Positions 13,880-36,236 of a stretch of DNA of 36,236 nt are shown here, piece after piece. The position numbers and the translations under genes were made by a program. The stretch's first letter is position 1, and each line of letters begins with the position of its first letter. The stretch comes from a bacterium (GTDB taxonomy: Archaea; Thermoplasmatota; E2; JACPAO01; JAHFTW01). Location of the stretch: the NCBI GenBank assembly GCA_040390065.1, contig JAZJZE010000021.1, forward strand, positions 1 to 36,236, in the 5' to 3' direction. The notes beneath the pieces are model-generated. The model saw only the letters and a program-made list of their open reading frames with translations, was not told the DNA's origin and did not search any database.

Positions 13880-14692
13880 ATGCGTGAGTGGGTCTGGCCT
13901 TTGCTGGTCGCCGTCGTGATCGTGTTTGCCGGCTGCAGCAGCAAGGAACCGGATGCGCGGTCCGTGCCCGGCACGACGGATGACACGAGCCACCCCGGAG
14001 GCAACGACCCGGTGACGTCGAACGGCGCCCCACCGACTGGACCGCCGCCAACGTCGGGGGCCGGCACGCCTGCGTCGCAAGGCGGGAACCACGCCCCGAT
14101 CCCGGACGTCAAGCCCTCGGCAAAGTCCGGTCCGGCGCCGCTCTCCATCAACTTCACGTTGGGCGCAAGCGACGCCGACGGCGACGCCTTGTCCTGGACG
14201 TTCGACGCCAATTCCGACGGTACAAAGGAAGACTCCGGCACCGATTTGCCCAAGACGGTCGCCTTCTCGTACGCGCAGGCCGGCACATCGAACGCCACCT
14301 TCCGCGTCACGGATGGACGCCTCGAATCCGTCTTCGTCGTCGCGGTCACCATCCTCGAAGCCAAGCCTGCGTCCGTCGTCTTCACCGGCCACGTCGACGT
14401 ACCCGACCCCGCCTCCACGGCGGCCAACGAGTGCATCCTCGACATCGCCATCGTGGCCGGCGCCCCGGACAACGTGGTGGGCAACATCCACGCCTTCCCC
14501 GAAGCCCTCGACGGCTGGCACTACACCTTCGACAAGCCCGGATTCTGGGCGCAATTCTGGCAAGGCACCACGGCCATCACGGGCTCCGGCGCCGGAGGCG
14601 ATGTCCCTACCGGTTCCGACCAAGTCTGGGTTTGCGGCAAGGATGCGGCGACGCTCAACACGGACTACGTGCTCACCATCAGCCCGCCGTAG
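13880..14692 (+). CDS. PKD-domain lipoprotein 1
   Basis: Lipobox VIVFAG-C, a T/P/G linker, then the PKD module NHAP...GPAPLSINFTLGASDADGDALSWTFD...YAQAGTSNATFRVTDG, then a distinct head domain. Confidence 0.88.
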   Translation: MREWVWPLLVAVVIVFAGCSSKEPDARSVPGTTDDTSHPGGNDPVTSNGAPPTGPPPTSGAGTPASQGGNHAPIPDVKPSAKSGPAPLSINFTLGASDADGDALSWTFDANSDGTKEDSGTDLPKTVAFSYAQAGTSNATFRVTDGRLESVFVVAVTILEAKPASVVFTGHVDVPDPASTAANECILDIAIVAGAPDNVVGNIHAFPEALDGWHYTFDKPGFWAQFWQGTTAITGSGAGGDVPTGSDQVWVCGKDAATLNTDYVLTISPP

Positions 14693-14694
14693 GC

Positions 14695-15033
14695 TCAAGC
14701 GACTCGGCGGCGGCGCGACACCCACCGGTACGCCGCGTCTCGCACTGGCTTGGGCACCAACCACACAGTTGCTTGGACGCGCCAGGGCCAGCGCAGCCGC
14801 TTGGCCACTTGCACCACGGCGGCGGATTCGACGAACGCCGCCTCGCCCACGACGGCGACCATCGTGTCGTCCTTGCGGGAGCCTAGGCCGTGCACTCTGA
14901 GCAGCGCGGCCCCTTCCTCGGACTGCGACGCAACGAACCGCAGCGCCCCCGGCACGGCATGCCGCATGCCAAAATGCGCCGCGCGGTTGCAGAGTGCGCA
15001 GTCGCCGTCGATGACGATGATGGCCGGCTGCAC
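14695..15033 (-). CDS. DCC1-like thiol-disulfide oxidoreductase family protein (DUF393)
   Basis: IVIDGDCALCN (DxxCxxC), LRFVASQSEEG and VPKPVRDAAYRWVSRRR. Confidence 0.88.
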   Translation of the reverse strand: MQPAIIVIDGDCALCNRAAHFGMRHAVPGALRFVASQSEEGAALLRVHGLGSRKDDTMVAVVGEAAFVESAAVVQVAKRLRWPWRVQATVWLVPKPVRDAAYRWVSRRRRVA

Positions 15034-15287
15034 ACGGCGGCCACCCGGACGGCCGCTATGGGCGTTGGCGTCAGGCGTCGCAACGGTCCCGGACCGGACC
15101 CCTTACGAACCTTGTCCGGCCACTGAAGACCATGGCACGAACGGCCCTTGCCCGTCACCCGGGTGGATGGAAGAGGTGCAGCCGAGGCCACGCCTTCCGG
15201 GGCCCGCGCTGCGTCACGTGTTGGCCTGGCGGGGGTGCCCCTTCACGGCGGGCCAACCGACCGGCGCGGCGGCATCCTGCGGCCCAT

Positions 15288-15299
15288 AACCCTTAAATG
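15288..15299 (+). promoter_or_regulatory. BRE/TATA-like promoter of rpl37ae-rpoP
   Basis: AACCCTTAAATG lies about 45 nt upstream of the ATG, with AGGAG SD in between. It nearly matches AACGCTTAAAAC upstream of rpoE1. Confidence 0.6.
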
Positions 15300-15340
15300 A
15301 AGGGGGACTTGGCGAAGCCTGCCTCCAGGAGTCCGTCCCC

Positions 15341-15640
15341 ATGTCCCACACCAAGAAGGTCGGCTCGTCCGGTCGCTTCGGCCCGCGCTACGGTGGCCTT
15401 GGCCGCCGCCAAGTCGCCAACATCGAGAAGGTCCAGAAGGCGGCCCACACCTGCATCAAGTGCGGCCAACTGTCCGTCTACCGCATGGAGACGGCCATCT
15501 GGTCCTGCAAGAAGTGCGGCTACACGTTCGCCGGCGGCGCCTACACGCCGTCGACCGGCGCCGGCCAGGGCGCGGAGAAGGCCCTGCGCGCCGTCCAAGA
15601 GAAGCTCGCGGCGCCCGCACCCGACGCCCCCAAGGAGTGA
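15341..15640 (+). CDS. rpl37ae: 50S ribosomal protein L37ae (eL43)
   Basis: TKKVGSSGRFGPRYG, CIKC...IWSCKKCGYTFAGGAYTP. Confidence 0.97.
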   Translation: MSHTKKVGSSGRFGPRYGGLGRRQVANIEKVQKAAHTCIKCGQLSVYRMETAIWSCKKCGYTFAGGAYTPSTGAGQGAEKALRAVQEKLAAPAPDAPKE

Positions 15641-15645
15641 ATCCG

Positions 15646-15783
15646 ATGGCGTACAAGTGCGGCGTCTGCAAGAAGCGCGTCGAGTTCAACGCCCAGAACA
15701 TCGGCATCCGCTGTCCTTACTGCGGTTCCAAGATCTTCTACAAGGAGCGCCCCACGGTGGCAAAGGCGCTCAAGTCAGAGTGA
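15646..15783 (+). CDS. rpoP: DNA-directed RNA polymerase subunit P (Rpo12)
   Basis: MAYKCGVC...GIRCPYCGSKIFYKERP, directly after L37ae. Confidence 0.95.
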   Translation: MAYKCGVCKKRVEFNAQNIGIRCPYCGSKIFYKERPTVAKALKSE

Positions 15784-15849
15784 GCATTCCACAGAATCCC
15801 TCCGGTCGGTCAGCCATCGGGAAACCCGCAGATTGACTCCTACCGCGAA

Positions 15850-15942
15850 GTCAATCCGTGGAATCTGCTCCCAGTCGGTGCCATTGCAAGACGTGCAAGA
15901 GCTCACCAGGACGATACCTAGGATCTCAGCGGAATCTGTGGA
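15850..15942 (-). repeat. 93-bp dispersed intergenic repeat, copy A
   Basis: Ungapped hand alignment gives 80/93 identity to 24769-24861 (inverted) and 81/93 to 26614-26706 (direct). Confidence 0.92.
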
Positions 15943-16012
15943 TCCGTCGGGCTTGCATGATTCCGTTGCCTAGTAGCGGCAACCTGAAGCCTGCGCCGTT
16001 GGTCACGCCCGC

Positions 16013-16255
16013 GTGCACGAAGCCACGATCCGCCTTGGCCTCGGCACGCATGCCGTGGCCGCCGCCGTCGTGCGCGCGCTTGCGGCCGAGCAAGCCGACG
16101 CGCCGGAGGGCGTCACGGTCACGCTTCGCGCCGATGGCAGCGACCTCGTCGCCGACCTTGCGGCGGCGGACCTGCCGACCATGCGTGCCGCGATGACGGG
16201 CGTCATCCGGCTGGCGGACGCCGCATCGCGCTCCGCGGCATTGGCCGTCCGCTAA
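16013..16255 (+). CDS. pcc1: KEOPS complex subunit Pcc1
   Basis: 80 aa: HEATIRL...AVVRALAAEQ...LAAADLPTMRAAMTGVIRL, in the canonical position after rpoP. Confidence 0.8.
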   Translation: MHEATIRLGLGTHAVAAAVVRALAAEQADAPEGVTVTLRADGSDLVADLAAADLPTMRAAMTGVIRLADAASRSAALAVR

Positions 16256-16303
16256 TTGCGCCGCCGCCGATAGGATATTTAGGTCAAGTGACTACCCTCT
16301 TGC

Positions 16304-17278
16304 ATGCGCCTTTTCGCGTTGGGCTGCATCTTGGCGGTTGTCCTGTCGGGATGCGGGGGCAAGAGCACGGACGGGGGCGACACGACCGGCAATGACGTCA
16401 CGACCGGCGTCGTGAGTTCGCACGGCACGGGCACGCCTGGGAACCATCCTCCGGACGGCGCCCTGCGCCCCTCAACGGTCGCCGGCCCCGTGCCGCTCGT
16501 CGTCAACTTCACGCTCGATGGCACCGACCGGGACCAGGATCCCTTGACGTGGACGTTCGACGCCGACCACGACGGCAAGGCCGACAAATCGGGCAAGGGA
16601 ACGGAACTTCCTGCGACGTTCTCGTACACGTACAAGACCACGGGTTCGTTCAATGCCACGTACAAGCTCTCCGACCCGCAATCCACCGTCACCTTCTCCC
16701 GCATCATTGGCGTGGGAGCTCCCGTGGGCGGCGGCGGCACCTTGTTCATCGACGACGCGGAAGGGGATGCGGGCAAGTGGACCATCATGAGCGAGGTCGT
16801 CGTCAACACGAACCTCCCCGCGGGACCCGGTCCGACAGGCACCGGGCAGGAGCATCCTGCGGGCCCATGGGCGCAGGTGTCCGACCAGTTCCACCTGGGC
16901 GCCAAGTCGTGGCATGCGCACTACCCGGACAACTACTACAGTTCCATGACGGTGAAGACGGCGATCACCGTCCCGCCCGGCGGAGCGCTGGTGTCGTTCT
17001 GGCTGAAGGGCGCGGCCGAAGACAACGGCTACGACGGCGTCTACGTGAACTCGGGCCCCAGCGCGGACGCACTCGAGAACCAGGTCTACCAGGCCAAGGC
17101 CATCGAGGATTGGAAGCAGTTCTTCTATCCGGTCCCGGAAGGCCCCCTGGTGCTGCAGTTCGTCTTCGCCGCCGACATCTCCTGTAGCAGCGAACCAGCC
17201 CCCACAGGAGGCCCGGTTGCATGCGGTGCTGGCTACGATGGCGGCGGCTTCTGGGTGGACGACATCCAGGTTGGTTAG
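16304..17278 (+). CDS. PKD-domain lipoprotein 2 with a jelly-roll (MAM/cleaved-adhesin-like) head
   Basis: Lipobox AVVLSG-C and PKD module GPVPLVVNFTLDGTDRD...LTWTFD. Head motifs are FIDDAEG..W, VSFWLKG..EDNGYDGVYV, LQFVFAAD and GFWVDDIQV. Confidence 0.88.
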   Translation: MRLFALGCILAVVLSGCGGKSTDGGDTTGNDVTTGVVSSHGTGTPGNHPPDGALRPSTVAGPVPLVVNFTLDGTDRDQDPLTWTFDADHDGKADKSGKGTELPATFSYTYKTTGSFNATYKLSDPQSTVTFSRIIGVGAPVGGGGTLFIDDAEGDAGKWTIMSEVVVNTNLPAGPGPTGTGQEHPAGPWAQVSDQFHLGAKSWHAHYPDNYYSSMTVKTAITVPPGGALVSFWLKGAAEDNGYDGVYVNSGPSADALENQVYQAKAIEDWKQFFYPVPEGPLVLQFVFAADISCSSEPAPTGGPVACGAGYDGGGFWVDDIQVG

Positions 17279-17323
17279 CCGGGCCTGGCAAGGTTTTTAG
17301 GGCCTGAGGCTGCCTCCTGGGTC

Positions 17324-18181
17324 ATGCGGTGGCTGGCGTTGGCGCTGATGGTTGGACTATTGCTTTCCGGGTGCTCGAGCAAGGGCTCCGGCGACGGCGA
17401 CGCGTCGCAGGCCGGCGACCAACCGAACGACGGGTCCGGACCGACGGAGGTCAGCGACGGCACGACGTCGCAGCACCAGGGCAACAACGGCGGTACGACA
17501 TCCGGCAACTCCGGTACCAACCACGCGCCCGTCGGCTCGATGCTCGTCTCCACCACCAAGGGCAATGCGCCGCTGCGCGTCAACTTCACGCTCGATGGCC
17601 GCGACCAGGACGGCGACAAGCTCACGTGGACGCTGGACGCCAACGGCGACGGCAAGGCCGACTCGCAGGGAAGTGCTCTGCCCAAGGTCGCGAGCTTCAA
17701 CTACACGACGCCCGGCCTGTACAAGGTGACGTTCAAGGTCACCGACGGCAAGCAGGACGTCTCCTTCCCGGCGACGGTCAACGTCACGGCGAACGTCCCG
17801 CAGGGCGCCCAGGCCCCGATCACTATCACCGGCACGATCACGGGCGCCTACATCGGGACCCCCGTCGGCATCGGGCTCGGTTACACGAACATCGACGACC
17901 ACCCGTTCGACGTGACGATGGAGGCCAAGCAGATGACGGTGCACCTCGACTGGGACCAGACGACCCCAGACCTCGACATGTACCTCCTGGCACCCGACGG
18001 CACGTCCGCGGGGACGGCCAATGCATACAACGAGCCGACGGGGACGGCCTTCGACGCCAAGGAGCCGGATATCATCGTCACGGACCCGACGCTGCTTGCC
18101 CAGTTGGGCTCCTGGGACATCCAGGTCGCCCCCGGGGAAGCCGCCAACAGCGCCTACACCGTCACCATCACGTTCGCTTAG
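17324..18181 (+). CDS. PKD-domain lipoprotein 3 with a PPC-like head
   Basis: Lipobox LLLSG-C and PKD module GNAPLRVNFTLDGRDQDGDKLTWTLD...YTTPGLYKVTFKVTDG. Head is VHLDWD..PDLDMYLLAPDG...GSWDIQV...YTVTITF. Confidence 0.9.
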   Translation: MRWLALALMVGLLLSGCSSKGSGDGDASQAGDQPNDGSGPTEVSDGTTSQHQGNNGGTTSGNSGTNHAPVGSMLVSTTKGNAPLRVNFTLDGRDQDGDKLTWTLDANGDGKADSQGSALPKVASFNYTTPGLYKVTFKVTDGKQDVSFPATVNVTANVPQGAQAPITITGTITGAYIGTPVGIGLGYTNIDDHPFDVTMEAKQMTVHLDWDQTTPDLDMYLLAPDGTSAGTANAYNEPTGTAFDAKEPDIIVTDPTLLAQLGSWDIQVAPGEAANSAYTVTITFA

Positions 18182-18226
18182 CGGCCTACAACAACCCTTG
18201 TATACGGTGGCGGCAACGCTGTACCC

Positions 18227-19060
18227 ATGCGCTGGGTAGCCCTGCTCTTCGTCGTCGCGTTCGCCCTTGCGGGTTGCGGCGGCTCGAGCGACGACGGATC
18301 GAATGGCAGCTCCTCCTCGAACTCGTCCTCGACGTCCAAGTCTTCGACCTCGTCGACGACCTCGACCTCGAGCACGACATCGACCACCACGACGTCCGGC
18401 GGCCCCGGCGAGAACCACGACCCGACGGCCGACCTCACCGTCGACGTCGCAGCCGGAAAGATTCCTCTCTCCGTCAATTTCACCGTCGTTGCCACCGATC
18501 CCGACGCAGGCGACTCCGTCACCTGGTCGCTCTCCTTCGGCGACTCCACGACCCCCTCAAGCGGCGACGCCGGCAAGAAGGTCCAGCACTCCTACACCGC
18601 CATCGGCAACTACACGGCGACACTCATCGTGACGGACAGCCACCAGGCGGCCACGACGAAGACGGCGCGCGTCAACGCCACCGCGGCCGGCCCGACCAAG
18701 ACTGTCCTCTCGGGCAGCGTAACGAACCGCTGCGGGGACCCCTGCGACACGACGGCCATGGGCTGTGCCGACTTCGCCAGCAACATGCCGGGCACGCTTT
18801 GCATCTGGTTCCCCATCACCGCGGCCATGCAGAACCAGCCGTTTACCGCCACCTCGACGGGCGGCGACCCTGACATCTACTTCACGGACACGTGCACGGC
18901 CCCTTCGGATGCAACCACGGAGCAAGGCTTCCAGAAGTCCGGACCCGAGGCCGGGACCGTCCCCGCCCTCAACTGCCTCGTCATCTGGGAGTACAACAGC
19001 CCGGCGGCGAACCCGACTGGCTACTCGATGCCGAGCACGTTCACCGTCACGATTGGCTAG
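18227..19060 (+). CDS. PKD-domain lipoprotein 4 with a poly-Ser/Thr linker and a Cys-rich head
   Basis: Lipobox FALAG-C, linker SSSSNSSSTSKSSTSSTTSTSSTTSTTTTS, PKD module WSLSFGD...HSYTAIGNYTATLIVTD, and a head containing six Cys. Confidence 0.9.
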   Translation: MRWVALLFVVAFALAGCGGSSDDGSNGSSSSNSSSTSKSSTSSTTSTSSTTSTTTTSGGPGENHDPTADLTVDVAAGKIPLSVNFTVVATDPDAGDSVTWSLSFGDSTTPSSGDAGKKVQHSYTAIGNYTATLIVTDSHQAATTKTARVNATAAGPTKTVLSGSVTNRCGDPCDTTAMGCADFASNMPGTLCIWFPITAAMQNQPFTATSTGGDPDIYFTDTCTAPSDATTEQGFQKSGPEAGTVPALNCLVIWEYNSPAANPTGYSMPSTFTVTIG

Positions 19061-19249
19061 AGGTCGTTGCATCACTTCCAGGGTGGCCTGCGACGGCCGA
19101 ACAACGACCCGCAAGGGCGCGCCGCTTTGCGGGGGACGTCGTCGTCGGATCCGACTCGGCGTGGCGCTGCCGCGCCGTCGCCGAATCGTCCTAGCCCTCC
19201 TTGCAACCCGGCGCGCGCAGGCCTCCTGGAGGTGATGCAACGACCTCTA
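19058..19249. mobile_element. MITE-like element (~192 bp) with ~35-bp terminal inverted repeats, flanked by TA
   Basis: Left end TAGAGGTCGTTGCATCACTTCCAGGGTGGCCTGCG (19058-19092). Reverse complement of the right end is TAGAGGTCGTTGCATCACCTCCAGGAGGCCTGCG (19216-19249). No credible internal ORF. A related copy starts at 36086. Confidence 0.8.
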
Positions 19250-20350
19250 CGCGCGACTTGGTTTGCGTGCCGCCTTGGCTCCCGGCTCGAGGGGCAACTC
19301 CTCACGCCGGCCGCAGTTGGGGCAGAGAAGCACCGTCGGGCCGAACAGGTTGCGCACGGCGTTGAACTTCGTCTGGCACTTGGGGCAGCGCGCCCGCACG
19401 GAGGCCACCGCCGCCCGCTCTGGCTTGGCAAGCGGGTTCTCCCACAGCGCCGGCAGGACTTCGGCCAAACCGCACTTGGGGCACAGGATGGCCGTCTCGG
19501 CGGCGGGGTCGCGCTGCAGGTCGAAGTGCGTCGCGCATCGCCCGCACGTCACGTCCAGGCGCATGAGGCGCGGCCGGTGCGGCCGCAGGAACGGCAGGAA
19601 CGGCGTCGAGCCGCCTGCCTCGCGCACGGCCTTGCGCTCCGCCTGCAGGTCGGACCACCACGACAGACGCGCGGTCCAGCGGGCCTTGCGTTCCGTCTTG
19701 CGGCGCTCGAACCGCGAACCAGCATAGTACGATTCCTTGCGGGCGCGGTCGAGGGCCACGAGGAAGCGGGGGTCGGAGCCGAGTTCGACGTCGACCTCCA
19801 TGCCGTGGCCGGGGTGCGCCCGTTCGTAGGACCAGAAGCGGTTCAGGCGCCCTTGTTCCCAGATGATGAAGAAGAAGCCGCCAAGGATCGGCACGAGTGT
19901 TGCGACCCAGATGGCCGTGGCGTTGCCGTAGCGCACGTCCGACGGGGCCACCATCGCGGCGGTGCGGCGTGCCGTCCACAATTGCAGGATCGACGTCGGG
20001 GCCAAGCACAACGCGCCAAGGACGTAGCCCATCACGCCCAGGTGCAGGCTGCCAGCGCCGAGGAGGAAAACGGCGCCTAGGGCGGCAAGCCACAGCATCG
20101 CTGCGTTGGCCCGGTGGTTCAGGCCCAGCGCCTCATGGCCGTCGACTTCCTTGTTGATGGCAAACAGCCACCGGCGCCGGTAGATGCCGAGGGTCACGGC
20201 CTGCAAGACCAGCTGCCGCCACAAGATGCGGCTGCGGCCGAGGAAGACGACCCTCACGGACTTGACCAAATGCCCGTCGTTTATCACGGTTGGGATGAGA
20301 TTGCTTGAGCCGCTGCTGGGCATGGGCCTTGGTGCGGACGTTTCCGCCAT
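19247..20350 (-). CDS. Membrane protein: DUF4234-like N-terminus plus two C-terminal Zn ribbons
   Basis: LQAVTLGIYRRRWLFAINKEV and about 4 TM segments, followed by CGRC...CPKC and CPKC...CPNC. Confidence 0.82.
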   Translation of the reverse strand: MAETSAPRPMPSSGSSNLIPTVINDGHLVKSVRVVFLGRSRILWRQLVLQAVTLGIYRRRWLFAINKEVDGHEALGLNHRANAAMLWLAALGAVFLLGAGSLHLGVMGYVLGALCLAPTSILQLWTARRTAAMVAPSDVRYGNATAIWVATLVPILGGFFFIIWEQGRLNRFWSYERAHPGHGMEVDVELGSDPRFLVALDRARKESYYAGSRFERRKTERKARWTARLSWWSDLQAERKAVREAGGSTPFLPFLRPHRPRLMRLDVTCGRCATHFDLQRDPAAETAILCPKCGLAEVLPALWENPLAKPERAAVASVRARCPKCQTKFNAVRNLFGPTVLLCPNCGRREELPLEPGAKAARKPSRA

Positions 20351-20391
20351 GCGCGCAACAGGCTTATCGTCTGCCGGGTCGGCTGGCCATC

Positions 20392-21594
20392 GTGGGCAAC
20401 GCGTGGCTGTTGGCAGTGCTGCTGGGCGCGACCGGGTTGGCCGGGTGCGGAGGCCTCGCTGGCTCGTCCTGCGACGGCTTCTGCATGACGCCCCCCGCCG
20501 ACCCGTCGGGCGCGTACGCGTTCCGCGCCGACGTCGCCGCGGACGAGTACCTGTGGGATTTCGGCGACCACACGACCGCGTCCGGCCACGACGTCATGCA
20601 CTCCTTCCCGTTCCGGGACGGCAAGGTGAACGTGCGCTTGACGGCGAAGTCGGCAGACGGTGCCCGGGCGTTCCAGCAGCCCATCACGCTGGGCACGGGC
20701 ACGAACAAGGCGCCGACCTTCCTGCTCGAGGCGCAGACGGATTGGGCCGCCGTCGGCGAGTCGGTCACGTTCAGTGCAGCGGGCTCGACCGACCCCGAGC
20801 ATGACCCACTGCTCTTTTCCTGGTCCTGCCAACGCGTCGGCGAGGCCATCCGCCTGGCCGAACACTACGACAACGCGCGGCCCCCACCGATCACCCCGAG
20901 TGCCGGGTCGATTGCAAGCGGGCGTGCCAACCACACGCTGCCCGAGGCGACGAAATCCTACAGCGGAGACTTGTGCGATTCCTTGGGGCACATCGGCGAC
21001 CACGCACTCTCCGCCGATGCGCAGACAGTCAAGGGGACGTTCCAGCGCCCCGGCAAGTACATGGTGTTCCTCGAGGCCGCCGACGCGACGCATCCGACCG
21101 TCTCCGGATCGTTCAGCCTCGTCGTGACCCCGGCGTCGGAGCGTCCAGCCGCACGCTACGCTTTCCCGTTCGCCGGGACGCTGACGGCGGGCACCCAATC
21201 CGCGACCGGGGCCGATCCGCCGCTGCAGACGGGTTGCAACAAGCTGCCCGAGAAGCCACGCTGCGACATCTTCCTGGGAAACTTCTCGCTCCCCCTCGGC
21301 GCGTCGAGCTCATGGATCAACCTCACCTACGACCGCGGCACCGCGGGACAGCCGCCCGTCGCGGGAACACCCGGCGAGGCCGCCGCCTACGAGGTGACCT
21401 GGGAACTCCTGCGCAGCGGCTTCGTCATCGCGTCCGGTGGCCCCGCGCAGGACACGACGTTCCTGCCGGGCAGCGCGACCCCGTTTTCGGGCAACTTCAC
21501 GGCGCGGGTGACGCTGCGGCAAGGGGCCAACGTGGCCTTCACGTGGTCGATGGAGTCGCACATCGAAGCGGACCCGTACAAGCTGTACTACTGA
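20392..21594 (+). CDS. Lipoprotein with degenerate PKD modules, paralogue 1 (ends DPYKLYY)
   Basis: GTG start about 28 nt after a TTAT box. Lipobox GLAG-C, YLWDFGD and GESVTFSAAGSTDPEHD. Colinear with 21685-22941. Confidence 0.85.
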   Translation: MGNAWLLAVLLGATGLAGCGGLAGSSCDGFCMTPPADPSGAYAFRADVAADEYLWDFGDHTTASGHDVMHSFPFRDGKVNVRLTAKSADGARAFQQPITLGTGTNKAPTFLLEAQTDWAAVGESVTFSAAGSTDPEHDPLLFSWSCQRVGEAIRLAEHYDNARPPPITPSAGSIASGRANHTLPEATKSYSGDLCDSLGHIGDHALSADAQTVKGTFQRPGKYMVFLEAADATHPTVSGSFSLVVTPASERPAARYAFPFAGTLTAGTQSATGADPPLQTGCNKLPEKPRCDIFLGNFSLPLGASSSWINLTYDRGTAGQPPVAGTPGEAAAYEVTWELLRSGFVIASGGPAQDTTFLPGSATPFSGNFTARVTLRQGANVAFTWSMESHIEADPYKLYY

Positions 21595-21684
21595 GGACGA
21601 GCATGACCCAGACCGAACCCGTTGAGAGCCGCCCCGGCCGGCAGTCCATAAGACTTATACCAAAACCCCTGGCATCGGCGCGCC

Positions 21685-22941
21685 ATGGACCTAGGAAAGG
21701 CCGCCGCACTCACCCTCCTCGTCGCTGCGGCCCTGGCGGGCTGCTCCGGCAAGAACGACCAGGGTGGCCCCGGCGCCTCCGGCTCGGGCTGCGTCGACGG
21801 CTTCTGCATCACCGTGCCGGCCTCGCCTGGCGACGCGTACCACTTCAGCGCCAGTGTGTCGGCGGACAACTACACGTGGGACCTCGGCGACAACCTCGGT
21901 CCCGCTTGGGGGCACGACGTCGACCACACGTACGACGTGCAGAACTCCAACCTGACGGTGCGCCTCTACGCCAAGAGCGGCTCGGACACGCACATGTACG
22001 AGCGCAAGGGCGCCATCGTGCGCGGCTGCTTCCAAGCACCAACACCAGCCTGCGAGAATCACCGGGCCACGTTCCTGCTCGAGGCCGAACGCAACTGGTT
22101 CGTGACGGGCGAGAAGGCGCACTTCTCGGCTGCCTCGAGCCGCGACCCGGACGGCGACAACATGCGCTTTGCCTGGGCCTGCCAGCGCAATGGCCCTGCC
22201 GTGAAACTCACGCCCCACTCGCACGGCCCGATGCCGCCGCCCTTCCAGGCGCCGCCCGCCGGCTCCGTCACAAGCGGTGTGGCCAATCATACGCTCCCCG
22301 CCGCCACGCTCGTCCTCGACGCGTCGGTCGACCTGTGCCAAGCCCTCGGCTCGATCGGCTCCCAGCGCCTCTCCACGGGCGCCACGACCCTCGAAGGCAC
22401 GTTCCTGCAGGAAGGCAAGTACAGCATGTTCCTGATCGCCGCCGACCCGGCACACCCGACAGTGTCGGGACAATTCGACTTCGTCGTGACGCCGCCTGCG
22501 GACCGACCGGCCCTCCTCCAGACCTGGCCGTTCTCCGGGAACTTCAAGGCCGGCGCGCACACCGCAACGGGCGGAGCCGCGGACGTGCAGACCGTCTGCG
22601 ATGCGGCGATGTCGGGCCAGACGTGCGACGTGTTCCTCGGTGCCGTCAACATGCCGCTTGGCGCCACCATCTCCTGGGTCAACTTCACGTACGGCATCGG
22701 TCCGGGCGGCTCCACCGTGCCACCCAGCGGCCAGAACCAGGCCAAGTGGTTCCTCACGAAGGACGGGGTCAGCATCGCCAATGGCGGCCCTGGACAGGAG
22801 CCGGTCGTGATCGAGGCCATCCACACGCCGCTTGGCGCCAACTACGTCATGCGCATCACGGCGGAGCAGGGCGGCAACTTCGACTTCCAGTTGCAGATGC
22901 AGTCCAAGATGGACCTCGACCCGTACAAGCTCTACTTCTGA
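21685..22941 (+). CDS. Lipoprotein with degenerate PKD modules, paralogue 2 (ends DPYKLYF)
   Basis: Lipobox AALAG-C, YTWDLGD and GEKAHFSAASSRDPDGD. Shares TFLLEA, W.CQR.G, ANHTLP.AT, HPTVSG and PLGA..SW.N.TY with paralogue 1. Confidence 0.88.
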   Translation: MDLGKAAALTLLVAAALAGCSGKNDQGGPGASGSGCVDGFCITVPASPGDAYHFSASVSADNYTWDLGDNLGPAWGHDVDHTYDVQNSNLTVRLYAKSGSDTHMYERKGAIVRGCFQAPTPACENHRATFLLEAERNWFVTGEKAHFSAASSRDPDGDNMRFAWACQRNGPAVKLTPHSHGPMPPPFQAPPAGSVTSGVANHTLPAATLVLDASVDLCQALGSIGSQRLSTGATTLEGTFLQEGKYSMFLIAADPAHPTVSGQFDFVVTPPADRPALLQTWPFSGNFKAGAHTATGGAADVQTVCDAAMSGQTCDVFLGAVNMPLGATISWVNFTYGIGPGGSTVPPSGQNQAKWFLTKDGVSIANGGPGQEPVVIEAIHTPLGANYVMRITAEQGGNFDFQLQMQSKMDLDPYKLYF

Positions 22942-22984
22942 GCGAAGGCGGAACGCTTTTTCCGCCGCCGCGCTGGGAGTGCCC

Positions 22985-24745
22985 ATGAAGCCCTCCGTCG
23001 CCTGGGCCGCCGCCTTGACCATGGCTTGCCTCGCCCTTGCAGGCTGTTCCAGCAGCAGTGGCAGCGCCCCGGCAGCCACCGTGGACCCGTCGGAGAACTC
23101 GGACTACGTCTCCGGCCGCGAGATCCACCTCAAGATGTCGGTCGTCGACTACGACCAGGAACTCTACCCGGGAATGCATTCCTGGCTGTGGGCGTTCTGC
23201 GTCGAGGCCTTCGACCCCGGCGACGCGGCCTCCGTCGCGGCCATCGAGTACTTCGACCGGCTGCCCGGCGACGGCACGAACCCGGAAGTTGCCGGCCAAC
23301 TGCGTGACCACTGCGGCGTGCCGGGCCCGACCATCCGCGTGCACCAAGGCGACCACGTCGTCGTCGAGTTCACGAACACGCACGTCCACCCGCACACCAT
23401 CCACTGGCACGGCCAGTACGTCCCCGGCGACCAGTGCCCGGAGTCCGGCTGCGCCGACGGCGCCCAAGGCGTGACGCAGCAGGCCGTCAAGGGCACACCC
23501 TTCGTCTACGACTTCATCGCGAAGCGCGCTGGCACGCTGTGGTACCACTGCCACGTCGACGCCGGCTTCCACATGATGCAGGGCCTGTACGGCATGTTCA
23601 TCGTCGAGCCCAAGAGCACGGACCACGAACCGAAGAACATCGACCACGAAGAGACGATGATCCTGAGCACCGTGCGCCGCGCAATCGTCGAAGCCGTCCC
23701 TGGCACGAGCCGGCACAACCACCCGCCGGGCTGCTTCGTCTCCGGGACACCCAACTGCCAGAACCCGCCGCAGATCCTGACGCCGGACATCTTCATGATC
23801 AACGGCCATAGTTATCCGTTCACGGAGGACCAGCCGCAGTCGGTCATGCACATCGAGTCGGGCAAGGACATCCGCGTGCGCATCCTCAACGCGGGCAACA
23901 CGCAGGAGGAGATCCATTTGCACGGGCATGACATGGAAGTCATTGCGGAGGACGGCGTGGCGCTTGCCGTGCCCTACTACGTCGACACCCTGCGCGTCGG
24001 CCCGGCCGAGCGCTTCGACGTCGTCATCCACGGCAACAACCCGGGCGTCTGGCTCATGCACACCCACGTGGCGCAGGACGAGACCAACGACCTGCAGTTC
24101 CCCGGCGGCATGCACACGATGCTCGTCTACAAGGGCTTCGAGGACAAGATGCACAACTTCCCGGCGGAATTGGCCGGAGGGATGCCGTACCATGCCGACG
24201 TCTTCCCGCCGAGCGACCACACGTTCTCGGACACCGTGTACATGCCGACGGCTGCCGCCGCGCCGATTCCGGGAGGCCCGGCGCCGACCAATACGGCAAA
24301 CGTGCAGCGCACGTTTGGCGTGCCAATGGAGTGCGCGCTCAAGACCATCAGTTTCACGGCCCAATTGTCCGGCTCGCAGGCCAGCCAGACAGCGTCGTCG
24401 CTGGACGTCGCCATCCGCAAGCCCGGCGACGGTCCAGAGAAGGCGGCGTACCGCAACGGGGCGCTCGGCTTCAACCAGGGGAACCCGGGCACGCCGACCC
24501 CCACGGTTCACTTTGCCCTTGCCCAGGCGCAACACCCGGACGGCACGTTCGAACTGACGCAGGGCAACTGGACCATCAGCATCACGGGCCGCGCCGCCGA
24601 GTCGATTGTGGCGCTCACGACGGACACGGACTACTATGCGTCCTGGGACGAGCAGTTGGAAAGCCACCACTCCAACAAGACGCCTCTTTGCGGGACCTAC
24701 GGGTACGGCAACGAGGGCCGCGTCGTCGGCGCCGGCAACGTGTAG
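22985..24745 (+). CDS. Lipoprotein multicopper oxidase, two-domain (type C-like), with a C-terminal extension
   Basis: Lipobox LALAG-C. Domain 1 has PGPTIRV, HTIHWHG and WYHCHVDAGFHMMQGL. Domain 2 has IHLHGH, GPAERFDV and WLMHTH. Confidence 0.93.
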   Translation: MKPSVAWAAALTMACLALAGCSSSSGSAPAATVDPSENSDYVSGREIHLKMSVVDYDQELYPGMHSWLWAFCVEAFDPGDAASVAAIEYFDRLPGDGTNPEVAGQLRDHCGVPGPTIRVHQGDHVVVEFTNTHVHPHTIHWHGQYVPGDQCPESGCADGAQGVTQQAVKGTPFVYDFIAKRAGTLWYHCHVDAGFHMMQGLYGMFIVEPKSTDHEPKNIDHEETMILSTVRRAIVEAVPGTSRHNHPPGCFVSGTPNCQNPPQILTPDIFMINGHSYPFTEDQPQSVMHIESGKDIRVRILNAGNTQEEIHLHGHDMEVIAEDGVALAVPYYVDTLRVGPAERFDVVIHGNNPGVWLMHTHVAQDETNDLQFPGGMHTMLVYKGFEDKMHNFPAELAGGMPYHADVFPPSDHTFSDTVYMPTAAAAPIPGGPAPTNTANVQRTFGVPMECALKTISFTAQLSGSQASQTASSLDVAIRKPGDGPEKAAYRNGALGFNQGNPGTPTPTVHFALAQAQHPDGTFELTQGNWTISITGRAAESIVALTTDTDYYASWDEQLESHHSNKTPLCGTYGYGNEGRVVGAGNV

Positions 24746-24768
24746 TCTTGCCCTGGTCGCCCACGCAA

Positions 24769-24861
24769 TCCACAGATTTCGCCGAAACCTTGGGCATCGT
24801 CCTGGTGGGTTCTTGCGCGTCTTGCAATGGCACTGACTGGGAGCAGATGCCACTGATTGAC
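24769..24861 (+). repeat. 93-bp dispersed intergenic repeat, copy B
   Basis: TCCACAGATTTCGCC...TCTTGCAATGGCACTGACTGGGAGCAGATGCCACTGATTGAC, inverted relative to copies A and C. Confidence 0.92.
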
Positions 24862-25017
24862 CAAGCCGGCGTGGCCAATCTGCGGCGGGTCGCGGGCGCC
24901 GGCAGGCCCCCCGGCAAGGAGGCAGGCGCGGGAGGCGGCAGCCCCCCGCCGTTCTGTGGGGCCGAGCCATGCGCGGCCCCACGCACAACTGATCGACCTG
25001 GTTGCAGGTCGTGAGGC

Positions 25018-25030
25018 AACGCTTAAAACC
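25018..25030 (+). promoter_or_regulatory. BRE/TATA-like promoter of rpoE1-spt4
   Basis: AACGCTTAAAACC lies about 55-60 nt upstream of the TTG start. Confidence 0.55.
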
Positions 25031-25084
25031 ACCTTCCCGTCCGAAGGTCGCCCAGGGTGCCCTTCGCATCCAGGGGGTCCTCCC

Positions 25085-25747
25085 TTGTACCGCGTCATCC
25101 CGATGAGCGACACCGTCCGCATCCCGCCGGAACAGATGACGGAGGACCTCGCCGACACCATTTCGAACCTCGTGCAGAAGTCCTTCGAGGGCCGCCTCAA
25201 CAAGACGCACGGCATCACTGTCCTCACGACCAACGTCCAGCCTGCAGGCGAGGGCCAGGTCATCCACGGCGACGGCGCCATCTACCAGAAGGTCGCCTTC
25301 GACGCCCTCGTCTTCAAGCCGGACAATCAGGAAGTCGTCGACGGCATCGTCGCCGAGATCGTCGAGTTCGGCGCCTTCGTCCACATCGGCCCCCTCGACG
25401 CCCTCGTCCACATGAGCCAGGTCATGAACGACTTCATGACGGCCGACGTGCACAACGAGCGCCTGGTCGGCAAGGAGACCGGCCGCACCCTCGAGGTCGG
25501 CGAGAACGTCCGCGCCCGCATCGTCACGGCGAGCCTCAACGAGCTGTCGCCCCGCGAATCCAAGATCGGCCTCACAATGCGCCAACCCGGCCTCGGCAAG
25601 TTCGACTGGATCGACGAGGACCGCCGCAAGGCCCGCAGCGGCGACGTCGCCCCGGCCCCTGGCACGCCCGACAACGTGCGCAGCGAGAAGCCGACGACCA
25701 AGCGCGCCGTCAAGAAGGCCGAGAAGGAATCCGCGGGAGCTGCCTAG
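25085..25747 (+). CDS. rpoE1: DNA-directed RNA polymerase subunit E' (Rpo7)
   Basis: TTG start gives MYRVIPMSDTVRIPP. Also IHGDGAIY, S1 domain EFGAFVHIGPLDALVHMSQV, and KIGLTMRQPGLGKFDW. Confidence 0.96.
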   Translation: MYRVIPMSDTVRIPPEQMTEDLADTISNLVQKSFEGRLNKTHGITVLTTNVQPAGEGQVIHGDGAIYQKVAFDALVFKPDNQEVVDGIVAEIVEFGAFVHIGPLDALVHMSQVMNDFMTADVHNERLVGKETGRTLEVGENVRARIVTASLNELSPRESKIGLTMRQPGLGKFDWIDEDRRKARSGDVAPAPGTPDNVRSEKPTTKRAVKKAEKESAGAA

Positions 25748-25927
25748 ATGAGCAAAGCCTGCAAGGCCTGCCACCTCATCAGCGAAGAACTGCAGTGCCC
25801 CAACTGCGGCCAAGCCACCAGCAAGAACTGGTCCGGCATGCTCACCATCCTCGACCCCAAGGACTCGGAGCTCGCGAAGAGCATGAATATCCAGAAGCCT
25901 GGCGTGTACGCGCTGAAAGTGCGCTAG
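25748..25927 (+). CDS. spt4: Transcription elongation factor Spt4 (RpoE'')
   Basis: Below the ORF-track cutoff. Manual translation: MSKACKACHLISEELQCPNCGQATSKNWSGMLTILDPKDSELAKSMNIQKPGVYALKVR. Confidence 0.95.
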   Translation: MSKACKACHLISEELQCPNCGQATSKNWSGMLTILDPKDSELAKSMNIQKPGVYALKVR

Positions 25928-25936
25928 GCGGGTTGC

Positions 25937-26365
25937 TTGGTCGGCGTCGAGTGCCCCAGTTGCGGGGCCATGGCGCTGGGCTACGACGCCCAGGGGAGGA
26001 TGCGATGCTTCACGTGCGGTTTTCCCCATCAAGACTTTGTTGCCGTGGACGCAGGCGGCAACGAACCCGCAGGGGCGGGGCCGGCGATGTTCCCCACAAA
26101 GGTGGCTTCCGGAGCCAACCTCTCCATCCTTGCAGCCATCCTGGCTTGGCCTGCCATTTTCTTGCCGTTTCCGTTCGCGCTCCTCGGCTTCCTCGGGCTC
26201 AGTACGTTGGCTCTTGTCGTCGGCTCGCTCGCGATTGGAAAACAGCGCCGCGACCCCCGGCTTGGGGGTCGGGTAGCGGCATGGTGCGGGGCCATCCTTG
26301 GCGGCCTTGAATTGACGTTCTTCGCCACTTCTCTCATTGCCGCGATCCTTCGTGCGAGGCCCTGA
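25937..26365 (+). CDS. Small membrane protein with an N-terminal Zn ribbon (DUF4190-like TM part)
   Basis: CPSC...CFTC followed by about 3 TM segments and GGRVAAWCGAILG; TTG start. Confidence 0.7.
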   Translation: MVGVECPSCGAMALGYDAQGRMRCFTCGFPHQDFVAVDAGGNEPAGAGPAMFPTKVASGANLSILAAILAWPAIFLPFPFALLGFLGLSTLALVVGSLAIGKQRRDPRLGGRVAAWCGAILGGLELTFFATSLIAAILRARP

Positions 26366-26613
26366 ACCGCCCTGGGCGGGCCGCCGGCGGCCCCCGCGCG
26401 CTCCCTTCGGTTCGCGCAATTGCCACTCCCTCGCTTCGCCGCGGCTTCGCCGACGGCGTGCTCGCCCCGGCCGGCGGCCCCTTCGCCTTCCTTCCATTCC
26501 ATCATGACGTCGCCGCCGTCGGAGGACTGCAGGAATGGGTCGTTGGCTTGGACAGGCAGGTTCGCGGGCGGGGTCCGGTCGGTTCCGTGGTTCGCACGAA
26601 GCCAGCCCTGAAA

Positions 26614-26706
26614 GTCAATCGGCGAAATCTGCTCCCAGTCCGTGCCATTGCAAGACGTGCAAAGGCTCACCAGGACGATACCTGGCGTTTCAGCGAAATC
26701 TGCGGA
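26614..26706 (-). repeat. 93-bp dispersed intergenic repeat, copy C
   Basis: Ungapped hand alignment gives 81/93 identity to copy A and 76/93 to copy B. Confidence 0.92.
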
Positions 26707-26782
26707 CTGCCTGCTCAGCCAGCCCGGCCCACCACCAATTCGACCCGAACCCCTAAAACCACGGCCTGGCGTCCCAAGTCCG

Positions 26783-36044: not shown

Positions 36045-36085
36045 CGTCGGACGCAGCGGTGCCTTGGCGCCGCGCTGCCGTTGCC

Positions 36086-36236
36086 TAGAGGTCATTGCAT
36101 AACTTCCAGGGTGGCCTGCGTCGTTTTCCGGGCTTCGCAGTCCTGGCGGCGCTGGCCGCCGGCGGGCCGGCAGCCCGCCAAGGCCGGCGCCGCCAAGAAT
36201 GTGTGGCCGGAAAACGACCCGCAAGGGCGCGCCGCT
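36086..36236. mobile_element. Second, longer copy of the MITE-like element; truncated by the window end
   Basis: 36086-36120 matches 19058-19092 at 33/35 positions, and 36213-36236 is identical to 19103-19126. Confidence 0.78.

Follow-up and report, generated by a model that had tools for sequence, protein, structure and literature searches.

Palindrome-associated elements (PATEs), which derive from IS200/IS605, are small, hairpin-ended and non-autonomous and make no target duplication. In the REP/REPIN systems, as outlined in three published accounts, short palindromic repeats are dispersed between genes, and many gene-less copies stand beside a few whose inverted repeats enclose a small gene, RAYT, that encodes a nucleic-acid enzyme (Bertels & Rainey, 2011, PMC3116915; Nunvar, 2010, PMC2817692; Di Nocera, 2013, PMC3733652). 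Prokaryotic MITEs, among them Correia, RUP, Chunjie and QMITE as well as archaeal members in Sulfolobus and Haloquadratum, are treated in a 2024 review as short, multicopy elements with terminal inverted repeats, and their flanking direct repeats are said there to fade with age (PMC10969869). The archaeal repeat family described here has features of all three and is read, with a probability of roughly two in three, as a gene-less, MITE/REPIN-like, non-autonomous derivative of GxxExxY nuclease cassettes.

The family was recognised in a window of 36,236 nt, which is the whole stretch of DNA analysed (contig JAZJZE010000021.1). The original prediction had named three similar, ungapped copies of 93 bp, and the analysis bore out the three positions, the similarity, the invariant blocks and the stop-free frame. 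The unit did not hold, since copies A, B and C measure 159, 117 and 91 nt, and 93 bp is the stretch common with the truncated copy C. The features in the window are:

15784..15942, minus strand: copy A, full-length, 159 nt (family-profile nhmmer E 9.6e-50)
15943..15953, minus strand: C-rich 5' flank of copy A, GCCCGACGGA, common to other copies
15925..15942, minus strand: 5' outer arm of copy A, composed of two units of 9 nt, TCCACAGAT TCCGCTGAG, 88.6% identity to consensus
15825..15862, minus strand: inner hairpin of copy A, GGATTGAC...GTCAATCTG plus the pairs on either side, present in the MFE fold
15784..15802, minus strand: 3' outer arm of copy A, ending GGGATTCTGTGGAATGC, segment 86.3% conserved
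24769..24885, plus strand: copy B, 117 nt, profile positions 5-132; 5' arm, spacer and inner hairpin, without the 3' module
26616..26706, minus strand: copy C, first 91 nt only, profile positions 7-108

Positions 15848-15942 and 26612-26706 share 87% identity over 95 nt; complementarity is 81% over 118 nt between 15826-15943 and 24768-24885, and 79% over 109 nt between 24753-24861 and 26614-26722. The gene context first given for the copies (after rpoP, before rpoE1 and in the spt4-DUF359 interval) is right by Pfam. Copy A sits immediately 3' of the rpoP TGA stop, 70 nt ahead of the Pcc1 start; copy B has a multicopper oxidase gene on one side and rpoE'/Rpo7 on the other, is upstream of an rpoE' promoter-like box, and adjoins an unrelated repeat (24880-25013); copy C is flanked by spt4 and by a ChaB-like ORF, which precedes DUF359, and beyond GATTGAC it runs on into sequence common to C9:574702 and C6:90089, followed by another repeat family (26378-26565). 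A C-rich string that is the same as or similar to the flank of copy A is found 5-10 nt upstream of most copies and may be the outer edge of the element. The closest congener (G004) lacks the element at sites A and B: there, 20 nt separate the rpoP stop from the Pcc1 start, vs 229 nt in the window, and site B holds unrelated sequence. No precise empty-site allele was recovered, so the ends given here are putative.

The genome-wide BLASTN proposed for copy number and boundaries was run, and copies were collected by a family-profile nhmmer search, after which element coordinates were trimmed. In this genome (2.68 Mb, 89% complete) there are 17 full-length and 5 partial copies, 22 in all, with a full element of 157-161 nt (~160), and copy B as query gives 17 matches at E < 1e-5, far above chance. 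By our own gene calls, all 22 copies are intergenic and lie in either orientation, none overlapping a called gene by >20 nt except at two calls with doubtful starts; 15 of the 22 lie within 50 nt of a gene 3' end (stop codon) and 5 within 50 nt of a gene start, and those after stop codons are split into 10 sense and 8 antisense. The copies are clustered, with 7 neighbouring pairs within 15 kb vs 2.05 expected (P = 0.002). In a search of 41 genomes, the family proved to be limited to a single species, with 22 matches in its own genome and single weak matches in 2 of the 40 others. No target-site duplication was found at the 17 full-length copies. Because the copies have diverged (pairwise identity 54-93%, median 74%), the family is probably old and now little active or inactive, and there is no sign of recent movement among them.

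The element starts with ATCCACAGAT and has TCCACAGATTCC-type ends, which are imperfect inverted repeats made of 9-nt units (TCCACAGAT/TCCGCTGAG). Outer ends and inner hairpin consist of CCRCAGATT-type units in nested inverted repeats, giving a composite layout of outer and inner arms with ~80 nt of unrelated spacer, and self-identity peaks at lag 9 (0.32 vs 0.20-0.29 at other lags). Across 16 copies, the 5' and 3' outer arms pair in 80.7% of cells and the inner hairpin helix in 80.3%, together 80.5%, vs 27-53% for the two-helix structure in slid registers; the 3' arm, taken as its reverse complement, agrees with the 5' arm in 11 of the 12 core bases. Conservation is 86-96% in the arms, 80-85% in the spacers and 65% in the loop. 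The long stem originally drawn is complementary in the consensus and pairs in 76% of cells vs 25-49% in slid registers, but its GGCATC/GATGCC part is good only in copy B, and one pair of that part forms in 1 of 16 copies.

The nonamer motif extends beyond this family. The double nonamer CCRCAGATTYCRCNGA (<=1 mismatch) occurs 35 times in the genome, 17 times in this family, 14 in a second family and 4 elsewhere; it is found in all 12 congeners (11-228 each) and has 127 occurrences in a genome from another genus, with 0-3 occurrences in reversed-pattern controls. The second family has 17-nt terminal repeats, and no target duplication was found at 9 of its copies. Its ends are identical to the 16-mer ACACAGATTCCACAGA, and two ACACAGATTCCACAGA hairpins adjoin the sole GxxExxY gene of congener G007, where CCGCCCC / GGGGCGG enclose hairpins that share the motif type of the element.

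GxxExxY PD-(D/E)XK proteins are ~115-130 residues long, and one published listing gives the function of the family as 'Unknown'. PF13366 (PDDEXK_3) matches are present in 13 of 13 genomes of the genus (45 matches); the three proteins checked all match NCBIfam TIGR04256 'GxxExxY protein', and in an alignment of 10 proteins the D, E and K residues of the nuclease motif show no variation. Nonamer arms are tightly associated with these genes: inverted arms surround the GxxExxY gene at 29 of 36 loci examined in the genus (5/5, 13/15, 11/16) and at 18 of 24 examined in named genomes of other phyla, the other 7 and 6 loci having no flanking arms at the thresholds used. CAGAT-type nonamers occur in 14 of the 18 flanked loci in other phyla, and six of the 24 begin with ATCCACAGAT, like this element. 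The cassette arms of congener G006 (ACACAGATTCAGCAGATTC) are 33 nt long, 82% complementary and 491 nt apart, and in congener G011 outer and inner arm pairs are nested around the nuclease gene, as in this element. The genome itself carries two intact cassettes, one on contig C17 with CAACAGATG arms and one on contig C3 with GAATCCACC/GAATCCACA arms, and a third, broken gene; no GxxExxY gene with exact CCRCAGATT arms was found in this 89% complete assembly. We know of no experiment or paper showing that GxxExxY proteins bind or cut such arms, and no paper describing this cassette class was found in the literature searched.

Because arms of the same kind, often with the ATCCACAGAT start, enclose GxxExxY genes in relatives and in many bacterial phyla, the element is read as a non-autonomous cassette derivative. 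Its interior has no similarity to the cassettes, no BLAST matches in congeners and no Pfam match for its open frames, so it is from the arms and the nested architecture that we infer descent from a cassette. The evidence points to the GxxExxY PD-(D/E)XK nuclease as the partner enzyme, and not to the RAYT/TnpA(Y1) partner suggested at the outset, which was not found in the genome. The nuclease would be the mobilising enzyme; in the presumed mechanism of movement, the cassette protein would recognise nonamer arrays of the CCACAGATT type and move or copy the element in trans, and the element, which is non-coding, hairpin-forming and probably parasitic DNA, would spread, or would once have spread, through the intergenic regions of one archaeal species.

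Two readings offered by the original prediction give the element a product of its own. A structured small RNA family, transcribed from the G-U-pairing strand, would agree with the more stable fold of that strand (-65.1 vs -54.8 kcal/mol) and with the two stem positions that are G-U in 10 of 16 copies, but it is improbable. Shuffled sequences differ between strands likewise (-53.8 vs -46.0), so the difference is largely compositional. The RNAalifold energy is only -10.8 kcal/mol and its covariation term +0.71, and shuffles score comparably: the proposed stem reaches 0.074 vs 0.067 in shuffles, with 149 of 500 as high, and the score of the arms and inner hairpin is reached by 395 of 500. The suggested Infernal/Rfam and covariation checks on 16-18 aligned copies gave no Rfam match and no covariation; both strands fold better than shuffles, the copies lie in either orientation, and the family occurs in one species. 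Hardly credible is a mobile remnant or mini-gene for a Cys-rich peptide (...LVSSCTSCNGTDWEQ... frame), which is refuted as far as sequence tells. That frame is stop-free in 17 of 18 scorable copies (4 of 22 were left out for gaps), but on the reverse strand two frames also lack stops, in 17 and 16 of these 18, the observed-to-expected ratio of synonymous changes (43 vs 32.6) equals that of a control frame (40 vs 30.1), and substitutions by codon position are 74/80/94. The frame has no start codon and is broken by 1-nt indels between copies after column 92, the open frames have no Pfam match at E <= 10, and copies lie behind genes in either orientation; the coding-signal check on the aligned copies was negative. 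By the test that the original prediction set in advance, which was the lack of both covariation and coding signal in an alignment of many copies, both readings fail. Its third option, a new REP-like element, comes close to the evidence of a dispersed, intergenic, palindromic, non-coding repeat, and its interpretation is partly supported overall.

A signal used by the host as DNA or RNA (a protein-binding site, a transcript-end hairpin or a regulator at gene 3' ends), with mobility secondary, has been proposed likewise for REP/BIME and some MITEs, and is unlikely here. The 15 of 22 copies near stop codons would fit it, as would copy A separating rpoP from Pcc1, copy B just upstream of the rpoE' promoter-like box, the better conservation of arms than spacers, and the folding of both strands better than shuffles (z = -2.9 and -2.2). 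However, the closest congener has no element at these sites and the family is missing from the 12 congeners, which argues against a conserved host role tied to these genes; orientation after stop codons is mixed, and the element is without an oligo-T tract of the type at which archaeal transcription ends. Slightly less doubtful is a classical MITE, an internally deleted derivative of a DDE-transposase IS whose full copy is missing from the draft, with the resemblance to cassette arms coincidental. By the definition in the 2024 review, the element is MITE-like in being <500 bp, multicopy, intergenic and non-coding, with imperfect terminal inverted repeats, and in its absence from orthologous sites in a relative (PMC10969869). 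Insertion sequences are frequently missing from metagenome bins, and in source-run contigs the assembly breaks at each repeat. Against this, a transposase search of the genome confined to the DDE_Tnp_1 family gave only two ORFs of 590-650 residues, without matching ends; no inverted motif pair 0.4-3 kb apart around an ORF was found in the genome or in 400 kb of G007; and neither the 17 full-length nor the 9 second-family copies showed target duplication. The arms are, moreover, arrays of 9-nt units identical in type to GxxExxY arms in many phyla, for which chance is hard to credit.

Read as a cassette derivative, the element still resembles prokaryotic MITEs in its length, its terminal inverted repeats, its multicopy, intergenic and non-coding nature and its truncated and modular variants, and its copies adjoin other repeat families, as in the BOX/RUP/SPRITE clusters covered by the same review (PMC10969869). 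Unlike MITEs, it shows no target-site duplication and no transposase-bearing parent was found here, its ends are tandem nonamer arrays, and its candidate parent carries a nuclease, not a transposase. With PATEs it has in common that it is small, hairpin-ended, non-autonomous and seen without target duplication, whereas neither a Y1 transposase nor TnpB was detected in this genome. As in the REP/REPIN-RAYT systems of the accounts cited above, short palindromic repeats are dispersed between genes, gene-less copies outnumber those that flank an enzyme gene, no target duplication is evident, and distinct repeat flavours are paired with distinct gene copies within one genome. The differences are that the candidate enzyme is a PD-(D/E)XK (GxxExxY) protein and not an HUH/Y1 transposase (no Y1_Tnp gene was found in this genome), that the arms are arrays of two or three 9-nt units where a REP is a palindrome of 20-40 bp tagged by GTAG or CGTC, and that the family is larger and two-level, at 160 nt, with a putative mobilisation by the enzyme. 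The element may stand in the same relation to the cassette as MITEs do to insertion sequences and REPINs to their RAYT genes.

A repeat search of the window recovered all three predicted copies of the element, A, B and C, at the positions proposed for them, with 87% identity over 95 nt between 15848-15942 and 26612-26706, and complementarity of 81% over 118 nt between 15826-15943 and 24768-24885 and of 79% over 109 nt between 24753-24861 and 26614-26722. Iterative nhmmer over the whole assembly (2,677,426 bases in 50 contigs, 66.8% G+C, 89% complete) ended in a profile of 182 positions and set the genome-wide copy number at 22, namely 17 full-length copies (E 7e-52 to 4e-32) and 5 partial ones, besides a few fragments. 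Once trimmed to their conserved ends, the full copies measure 157-161 nt, and their pairwise identity ranges from 54 to 93% (median 74%). The unit had originally been drawn at 93 bp, a boundary beyond which most copies stay similar on the 3' side and which is therefore too short. The window holds:

15784-15942, minus strand: copy A, full-length
24769-24885, plus strand: copy B, ending after the inner hairpin
26616-26706, minus strand: copy C, the first 91 nt only, followed by sequence common to two other truncated copies

Pfam bore out the predicted gene context, with the rpoP, rpoE' and spt4-DUF359 neighbours all present: the order around copy A is L37ae, RpoP, copy A, Pcc1, that around copy B is multicopper oxidase, copy B, Rpo7/RpoE', Spt4, and Spt4 is followed by an interval of ~850 nt with copy C, then by a ChaB-like ORF and DUF359. 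No tRNA gene was found in the window. Other repeat families adjoin copies B and C. The ~134-nt repeat abutting copy B (24880-25013) recurs four times elsewhere in the genome and a few times in the congeners G004, the closest one, and G002, and the ~185-nt repeat beside copy C (26378-26565) has at least 10 copies in the genome, mostly on contigs C9 and C17, and ~20 matches in G004, for which reason it is considered older and more widespread than the studied family. A further family, present at 19057-19257 and 36081-36236, is bounded by terminal inverted repeats of 25 nt (TAGAGGTCGTTGCATCACTTCCAGG) that are 96% complementary and separated by 142 nt. The genome contains 30 loci of this family, measuring up to ~290 nt, and as about half of these sit at contig ends, it is a main cause of assembly breaks; source-run depth at these repeats rises to 89, compared with ~13 elsewhere. 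Several neighbouring genes at 13901-19060 and 33372-36044 encode PKD-domain surface proteins with internal repeats (direct repeats D1-D3; Pfam).

The studied family has an insertion-like distribution. Relative to genes called with a home-made codon-usage gene caller, most copies (15 of 22) sit no more than 50 nt from the 3' end of a gene and only 5 are that close to a gene start, overlap with a called gene never exceeds 20 nt except at two calls with doubtful starts, and behind stop codons 10 copies are found in sense and 8 in antisense orientation. The copies are clustered (seven neighbouring pairs within 15 kb versus 2.05 expected, P = 0.002) and spread unevenly among contigs, with four on the 94-kb C3, three on the 36-kb window, one on the 609-kb C9 and none on the 226-kb C11, which could reflect local hopping, a regional preference or a mixed bin. 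Among 41 genomes the family is species-specific, with 22 matches in the studied genome, whereas two of the 40 others have a single weak match apiece. Nineteen metagenome stretches picked up with an 18-nt end motif were rejected as chance hits, because none matches beyond position 57 of the 182-position profile.

The element is variably present at orthologous sites, being missing from G004 at both sites compared. At the first, the rpoP-Pcc1 interval that holds copy A, all 12 congeners align with L37ae-rpoP to a few bases from the rpoP stop and not beyond, and the distance from this stop to the Pcc1 start is 20 nt in G004 versus 229 nt in the window. At the second, the interval upstream of rpoE' that holds copy B, G004 carries unrelated sequence, and the alignment is regained upstream of rpoE', at a conserved GCTTAAAA box. 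A box conserved in G004, AA(C/G)GCTTAA(A/G)A..CTTCCCGTCCGAAG (25018-25045), starts exactly at the end of the repeats, upstream of rpoE', and probably serves the rpoE'-spt4 operon as promoter and leader. Congeners differ in the length of the spt4-DUF359 spacer (0-835 nt); in the window this spacer also contains a 142-codon ORF (25937-26365), whose codon bias is weak and whose only hit, to DUF4190, is below threshold. The element explains the large differences between sister species in the spacers beside rpoP, rpoE' and spt4, and it explains where the assembly breaks. Contigs of the probable source run break inside or beside each repeat (~15881-15907, 19095-19249, 24939-24968 and 26633-26655). 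No allele lacking the element was found among the probable source-run contigs, and no consistent direct repeat indicative of a target-site duplication was found at the 17 full-length copies.

The original prediction had left three readings side by side, a REP-like element, a multicopy RNA and a peptide-coding remnant, the latter two of which can be weighed on the aligned copies. For an RNA, the consensus bears out the complementarity of the proposed stem (76.3% paired) and the element folds better than shuffled sequences on both strands (z = -2.9 and -2.2), but the stem lacks covariation (0.074 versus 0.067 when shuffled, with 149 of 500 shuffles as high). The score for the arms and inner hairpin was reached by 395 of 500 shuffles, and RNAalifold returned -10.8 kcal/mol with a covariation term of +0.71. 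The G-U pairs that were said to work on one strand only are largely a matter of composition, since the difference of 10 kcal/mol between the strands recurs in shuffled sequences. No Rfam family was matched over the whole window, and the best hits of a permissive search with copy A scored 14 bits (cut-off 80) and 11 bits (cut-off 45).

The frame read as a possible peptide is stop-free in 17 of the 18 copies scored (4 of the 22 being left out for gaps), but the same is true of two reverse frames (17/18 and 16/18), and the excess of synonymous changes noticed in it (43 versus 32.6 expected) is much the same in a control frame (40 versus 30.1). Substitutions at its three codon positions number 74, 80 and 94, no start codon is found in it, 1-nt indels differ among copies, and the open frames of the element match no Pfam family at E <= 10. 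Both readings fail, because the aligned copies give neither covariation nor coding signal, the very test that the prediction had set in advance, and it would be a mistake to annotate the hairpin as an RNA or the open frame as a peptide gene. The element is a real, non-coding, MITE/REPIN-like repeat family.

The consensus runs TCCACAGATTCCGCTGAG, spacer, GAGCAGATTCCGCCGATTG, loop, GGTCAATCTGCGGGG, spacer, GGGAATCTGCGGAATGC. The element ends are imperfect inverted repeats, which in copy A agree over 11 bases of their 12-nt core, and a 12-bp inner hairpin is nested between them. In 16 aligned full copies, the terminal arms pair in 80.7% of cells, and arms and inner hairpin together in 80.5%, compared with 27-53% in slid registers. 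Conservation is 86-96% in the arms, 80-85% in the spacers and 65% in the loop. The arms are composed of 9-nt units, with a self-identity maximum at lag 9 (0.32 versus 0.20-0.29 at other lags), and double nonamers are found at both ends and at the inner hairpin, the one at the 3' end being inverted. The period of 9 nt, or three codons, may let the arms persist within reading frames.

With at most one mismatch, the double nonamer CCRCAGATTYCRCNGA was counted 35 times in the genome, where 17 occurrences belong to the studied family, 14 to a second family and 4 to neither. Each of the 12 congeners has 11-228, a single genome from another genus has 127, and the other 18 genomes of the taxonomic family have 0-5, with reversed-pattern controls giving 0-3. 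One element of G004 shares the end and hairpin motifs but differs in its interior. In the congener G007, the basic unit is a hairpin of 50-90 nt, at times in tandem arrays, bracketed by C-/G-rich strings that resemble the C-rich flank of the window copies. The second family of the studied genome consists of 9 gene-less copies of 166-262 nt, with near-perfect 17-nt ends (ACACAGATTCCACAGAA), the CACAGATTCC core in common and inverted GCATCTGCGGAATTCTGG motifs in the interior; two copies stand in tandem, and no target-site duplication was found at any of the nine. Its loci include:

Contig C1: 123694-123955, 130752-131013, 162189-162384, 175779-175944 and 325714-326118
Contig C5: 84675-84886, 87028-87232 and 98895-99100

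A RAYT partner had been suggested as the source of mobility, yet PF01797 (Y1_Tnp) has no match in the genome, while control genomes were positive. TnpB likewise gave no match, and two long ORFs with weak DDE_Tnp_1 matches were dismissed as parents, being without related ends. Within this search (Y1, TnpB and DDE_Tnp_1, in the 89%-complete assembly), no autonomous transposase-bearing element with the same ends was found. Gene-carrying versions of the element were sought in the genome with single-motif and relaxed double-motif patterns and yielded only chance matches in coding sequence, the relaxed pattern giving 57 matches versus 48 for its reversed control. The congener G005 has two inverted motifs at some distance from each other, a pair that was rejected, as it lies within an unrelated long ORF, and in the first 400 kb of contig C3 of G007, 22 motif clusters were found, all shorter than 400 nt and none enclosing a gene.

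Arms of the same build are associated with a nuclease gene. PF13366 (PDDEXK_3) has 45 matches across 13 of 13 genomes of the genus, and all three proteins checked match PDDEXK_3 and TIGR04256, 'GxxExxY protein'; ten aligned copies of this small PD-(D/E)XK nuclease show no variation at the G..E..Y and D...ExK residues. Inverted arms of tandem nonamers surround the gene at 29 of 36 loci in the genus (5/5, 13/15 and 11/16 in successive batches), a count that leaves out 9 fragmentary PF13366 matches. The arm sequences vary between these cassettes (CGCCGATT, CACCGATG, CACGAATT, CGCGGAT, CACGGGGA and others), and arms of the CAGAT type are found in G005 (two loci), G006, G011 and G012 (two loci). 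Those of G006 (ACACAGATTCAGCAGATTC) are 33 nt in length and 491 nt apart, and in G011 an outer and an inner arm pair are nested around the gene with spacers of 51 and 45 nt, which is the layout of the studied element plus a gene. The sole GxxExxY gene of G007 adjoins two ACACAGATTCCACAGA hairpins. The studied genome has three such loci:

C17:28700-29150: intact cassette with three CAACAGATG units per arm
C3:83930-84380: intact cassette with GAATCCACC/GAATCCACA units (GAATCCAC arms)
C5:18990-19560: cassette with other arms and a broken gene, the two Pfam matches lying in different frames

In the C17 cassette, the reading frame and its start codons begin inside the CAGATG nonamer array, and the arm therefore supplies in-frame ATG codons. 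Gene-less copies of the C17 and C3 arm types number 16 and 12 in the genome, with none in controls, and none of the three loci in the 89%-complete assembly has exactly CCRCAGATT arms. A scan of one genome per prokaryotic species returned at least 551 protein relatives among at least 601 candidate stretches, and the 80 relatives kept represent many bacterial phyla as well as archaea. In the first 24 of these 80 loci with full flanks, all from other phyla, inverted arms flank the GxxExxY gene in 18 of 24, CAGAT-type nonamers occur in 14 of the 18 flanked loci, and 6 of the 24 start with ATCCACAGAT, the 5' end of the studied element (all among the matches listed). An entry in a 2012 survey of PD-(D/E)XK proteins gives the function of PF13366 as 'Unknown' and notes 'multiple transfers' (PMC3424549). 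No paper linking GxxExxY/PDDEXK_3 to repeats was found in a search that had subscription journals and supplements outside its range, and no description of the enzyme of the cassette class was found in searchable papers.

Judged from sequence, the best explanation of the studied element is that it derives from a GxxExxY nonamer-arm cassette and lacks the gene. It is the arms and the nested layout that suggest this descent, because the interior of the element matches nothing, and the nuclease may be what mobilises it. This explanation is weakened mainly by three points: no matching cassette was found in the 89%-complete assembly, no target duplications were seen, and the copies are old. More broadly, we tentatively propose, at a probability of roughly 0.4, that the family is one non-autonomous branch of a class of mobile or selfish DNA that would be very widespread among bacteria and archaea and has yet to be described. 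The GxxExxY nuclease, of ~120 residues, would recognise the tandem 9-nt units in hairpin arms, and would propagate its own cassette as well as large populations of gene-less hairpins. Taken alone, the studied repeat is ordinary genome clutter, and its wider interest lies in its ends, which tie it to the cassettes of a very common small nuclease; if this nuclease moves the hairpins, a new class of enzyme would stand behind dispersed repeats of prokaryotes, and the GxxExxY family would gain a function.

Among known systems, MITEs are described in a 2024 review as typically shorter than 500 bp, with flanking direct repeats that fade in old copies, and among archaea are listed there only for Sulfolobus, Halobacterium, Haloquadratum, Desulfurococcus and a few others (PMC10969869); no paper on MITEs in archaea of the Thermoplasmatota was found. 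Like MITEs, the studied element is short (157-161 nt), multicopy and non-coding, has terminal inverted repeats and is variably present at orthologous sites, but it differs from them in showing neither a consistent target-site duplication nor, in the 89%-complete assembly, a transposase-bearing parent among the Y1, TnpB and DDE_Tnp_1 types searched. The REP-like option of the original prediction holds insofar as a MITE/REPIN-like family is concerned, and falls short on the REP tag and the RAYT gene: REPs carry a conserved tag, GTAG or CGTC, according to PMC3733652, whereas the consensus ends of the studied element carry neither, its unit is of 160 nt rather than a palindrome of 20-40 bp, and the RAYT (Y1 HUH transposase) gene of REPIN-RAYT systems was not detected in the genome. 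From the GxxExxY cassettes the element differs in being gene-less, in a genome where no cognate copy with matching arms was found, and it shares with them the inverted arms of tandem 9-nt units of the CAGAT type; nuclease, cassettes and hairpins together would form a nuclease-based counterpart of REPIN-RAYT and MITE-IS.
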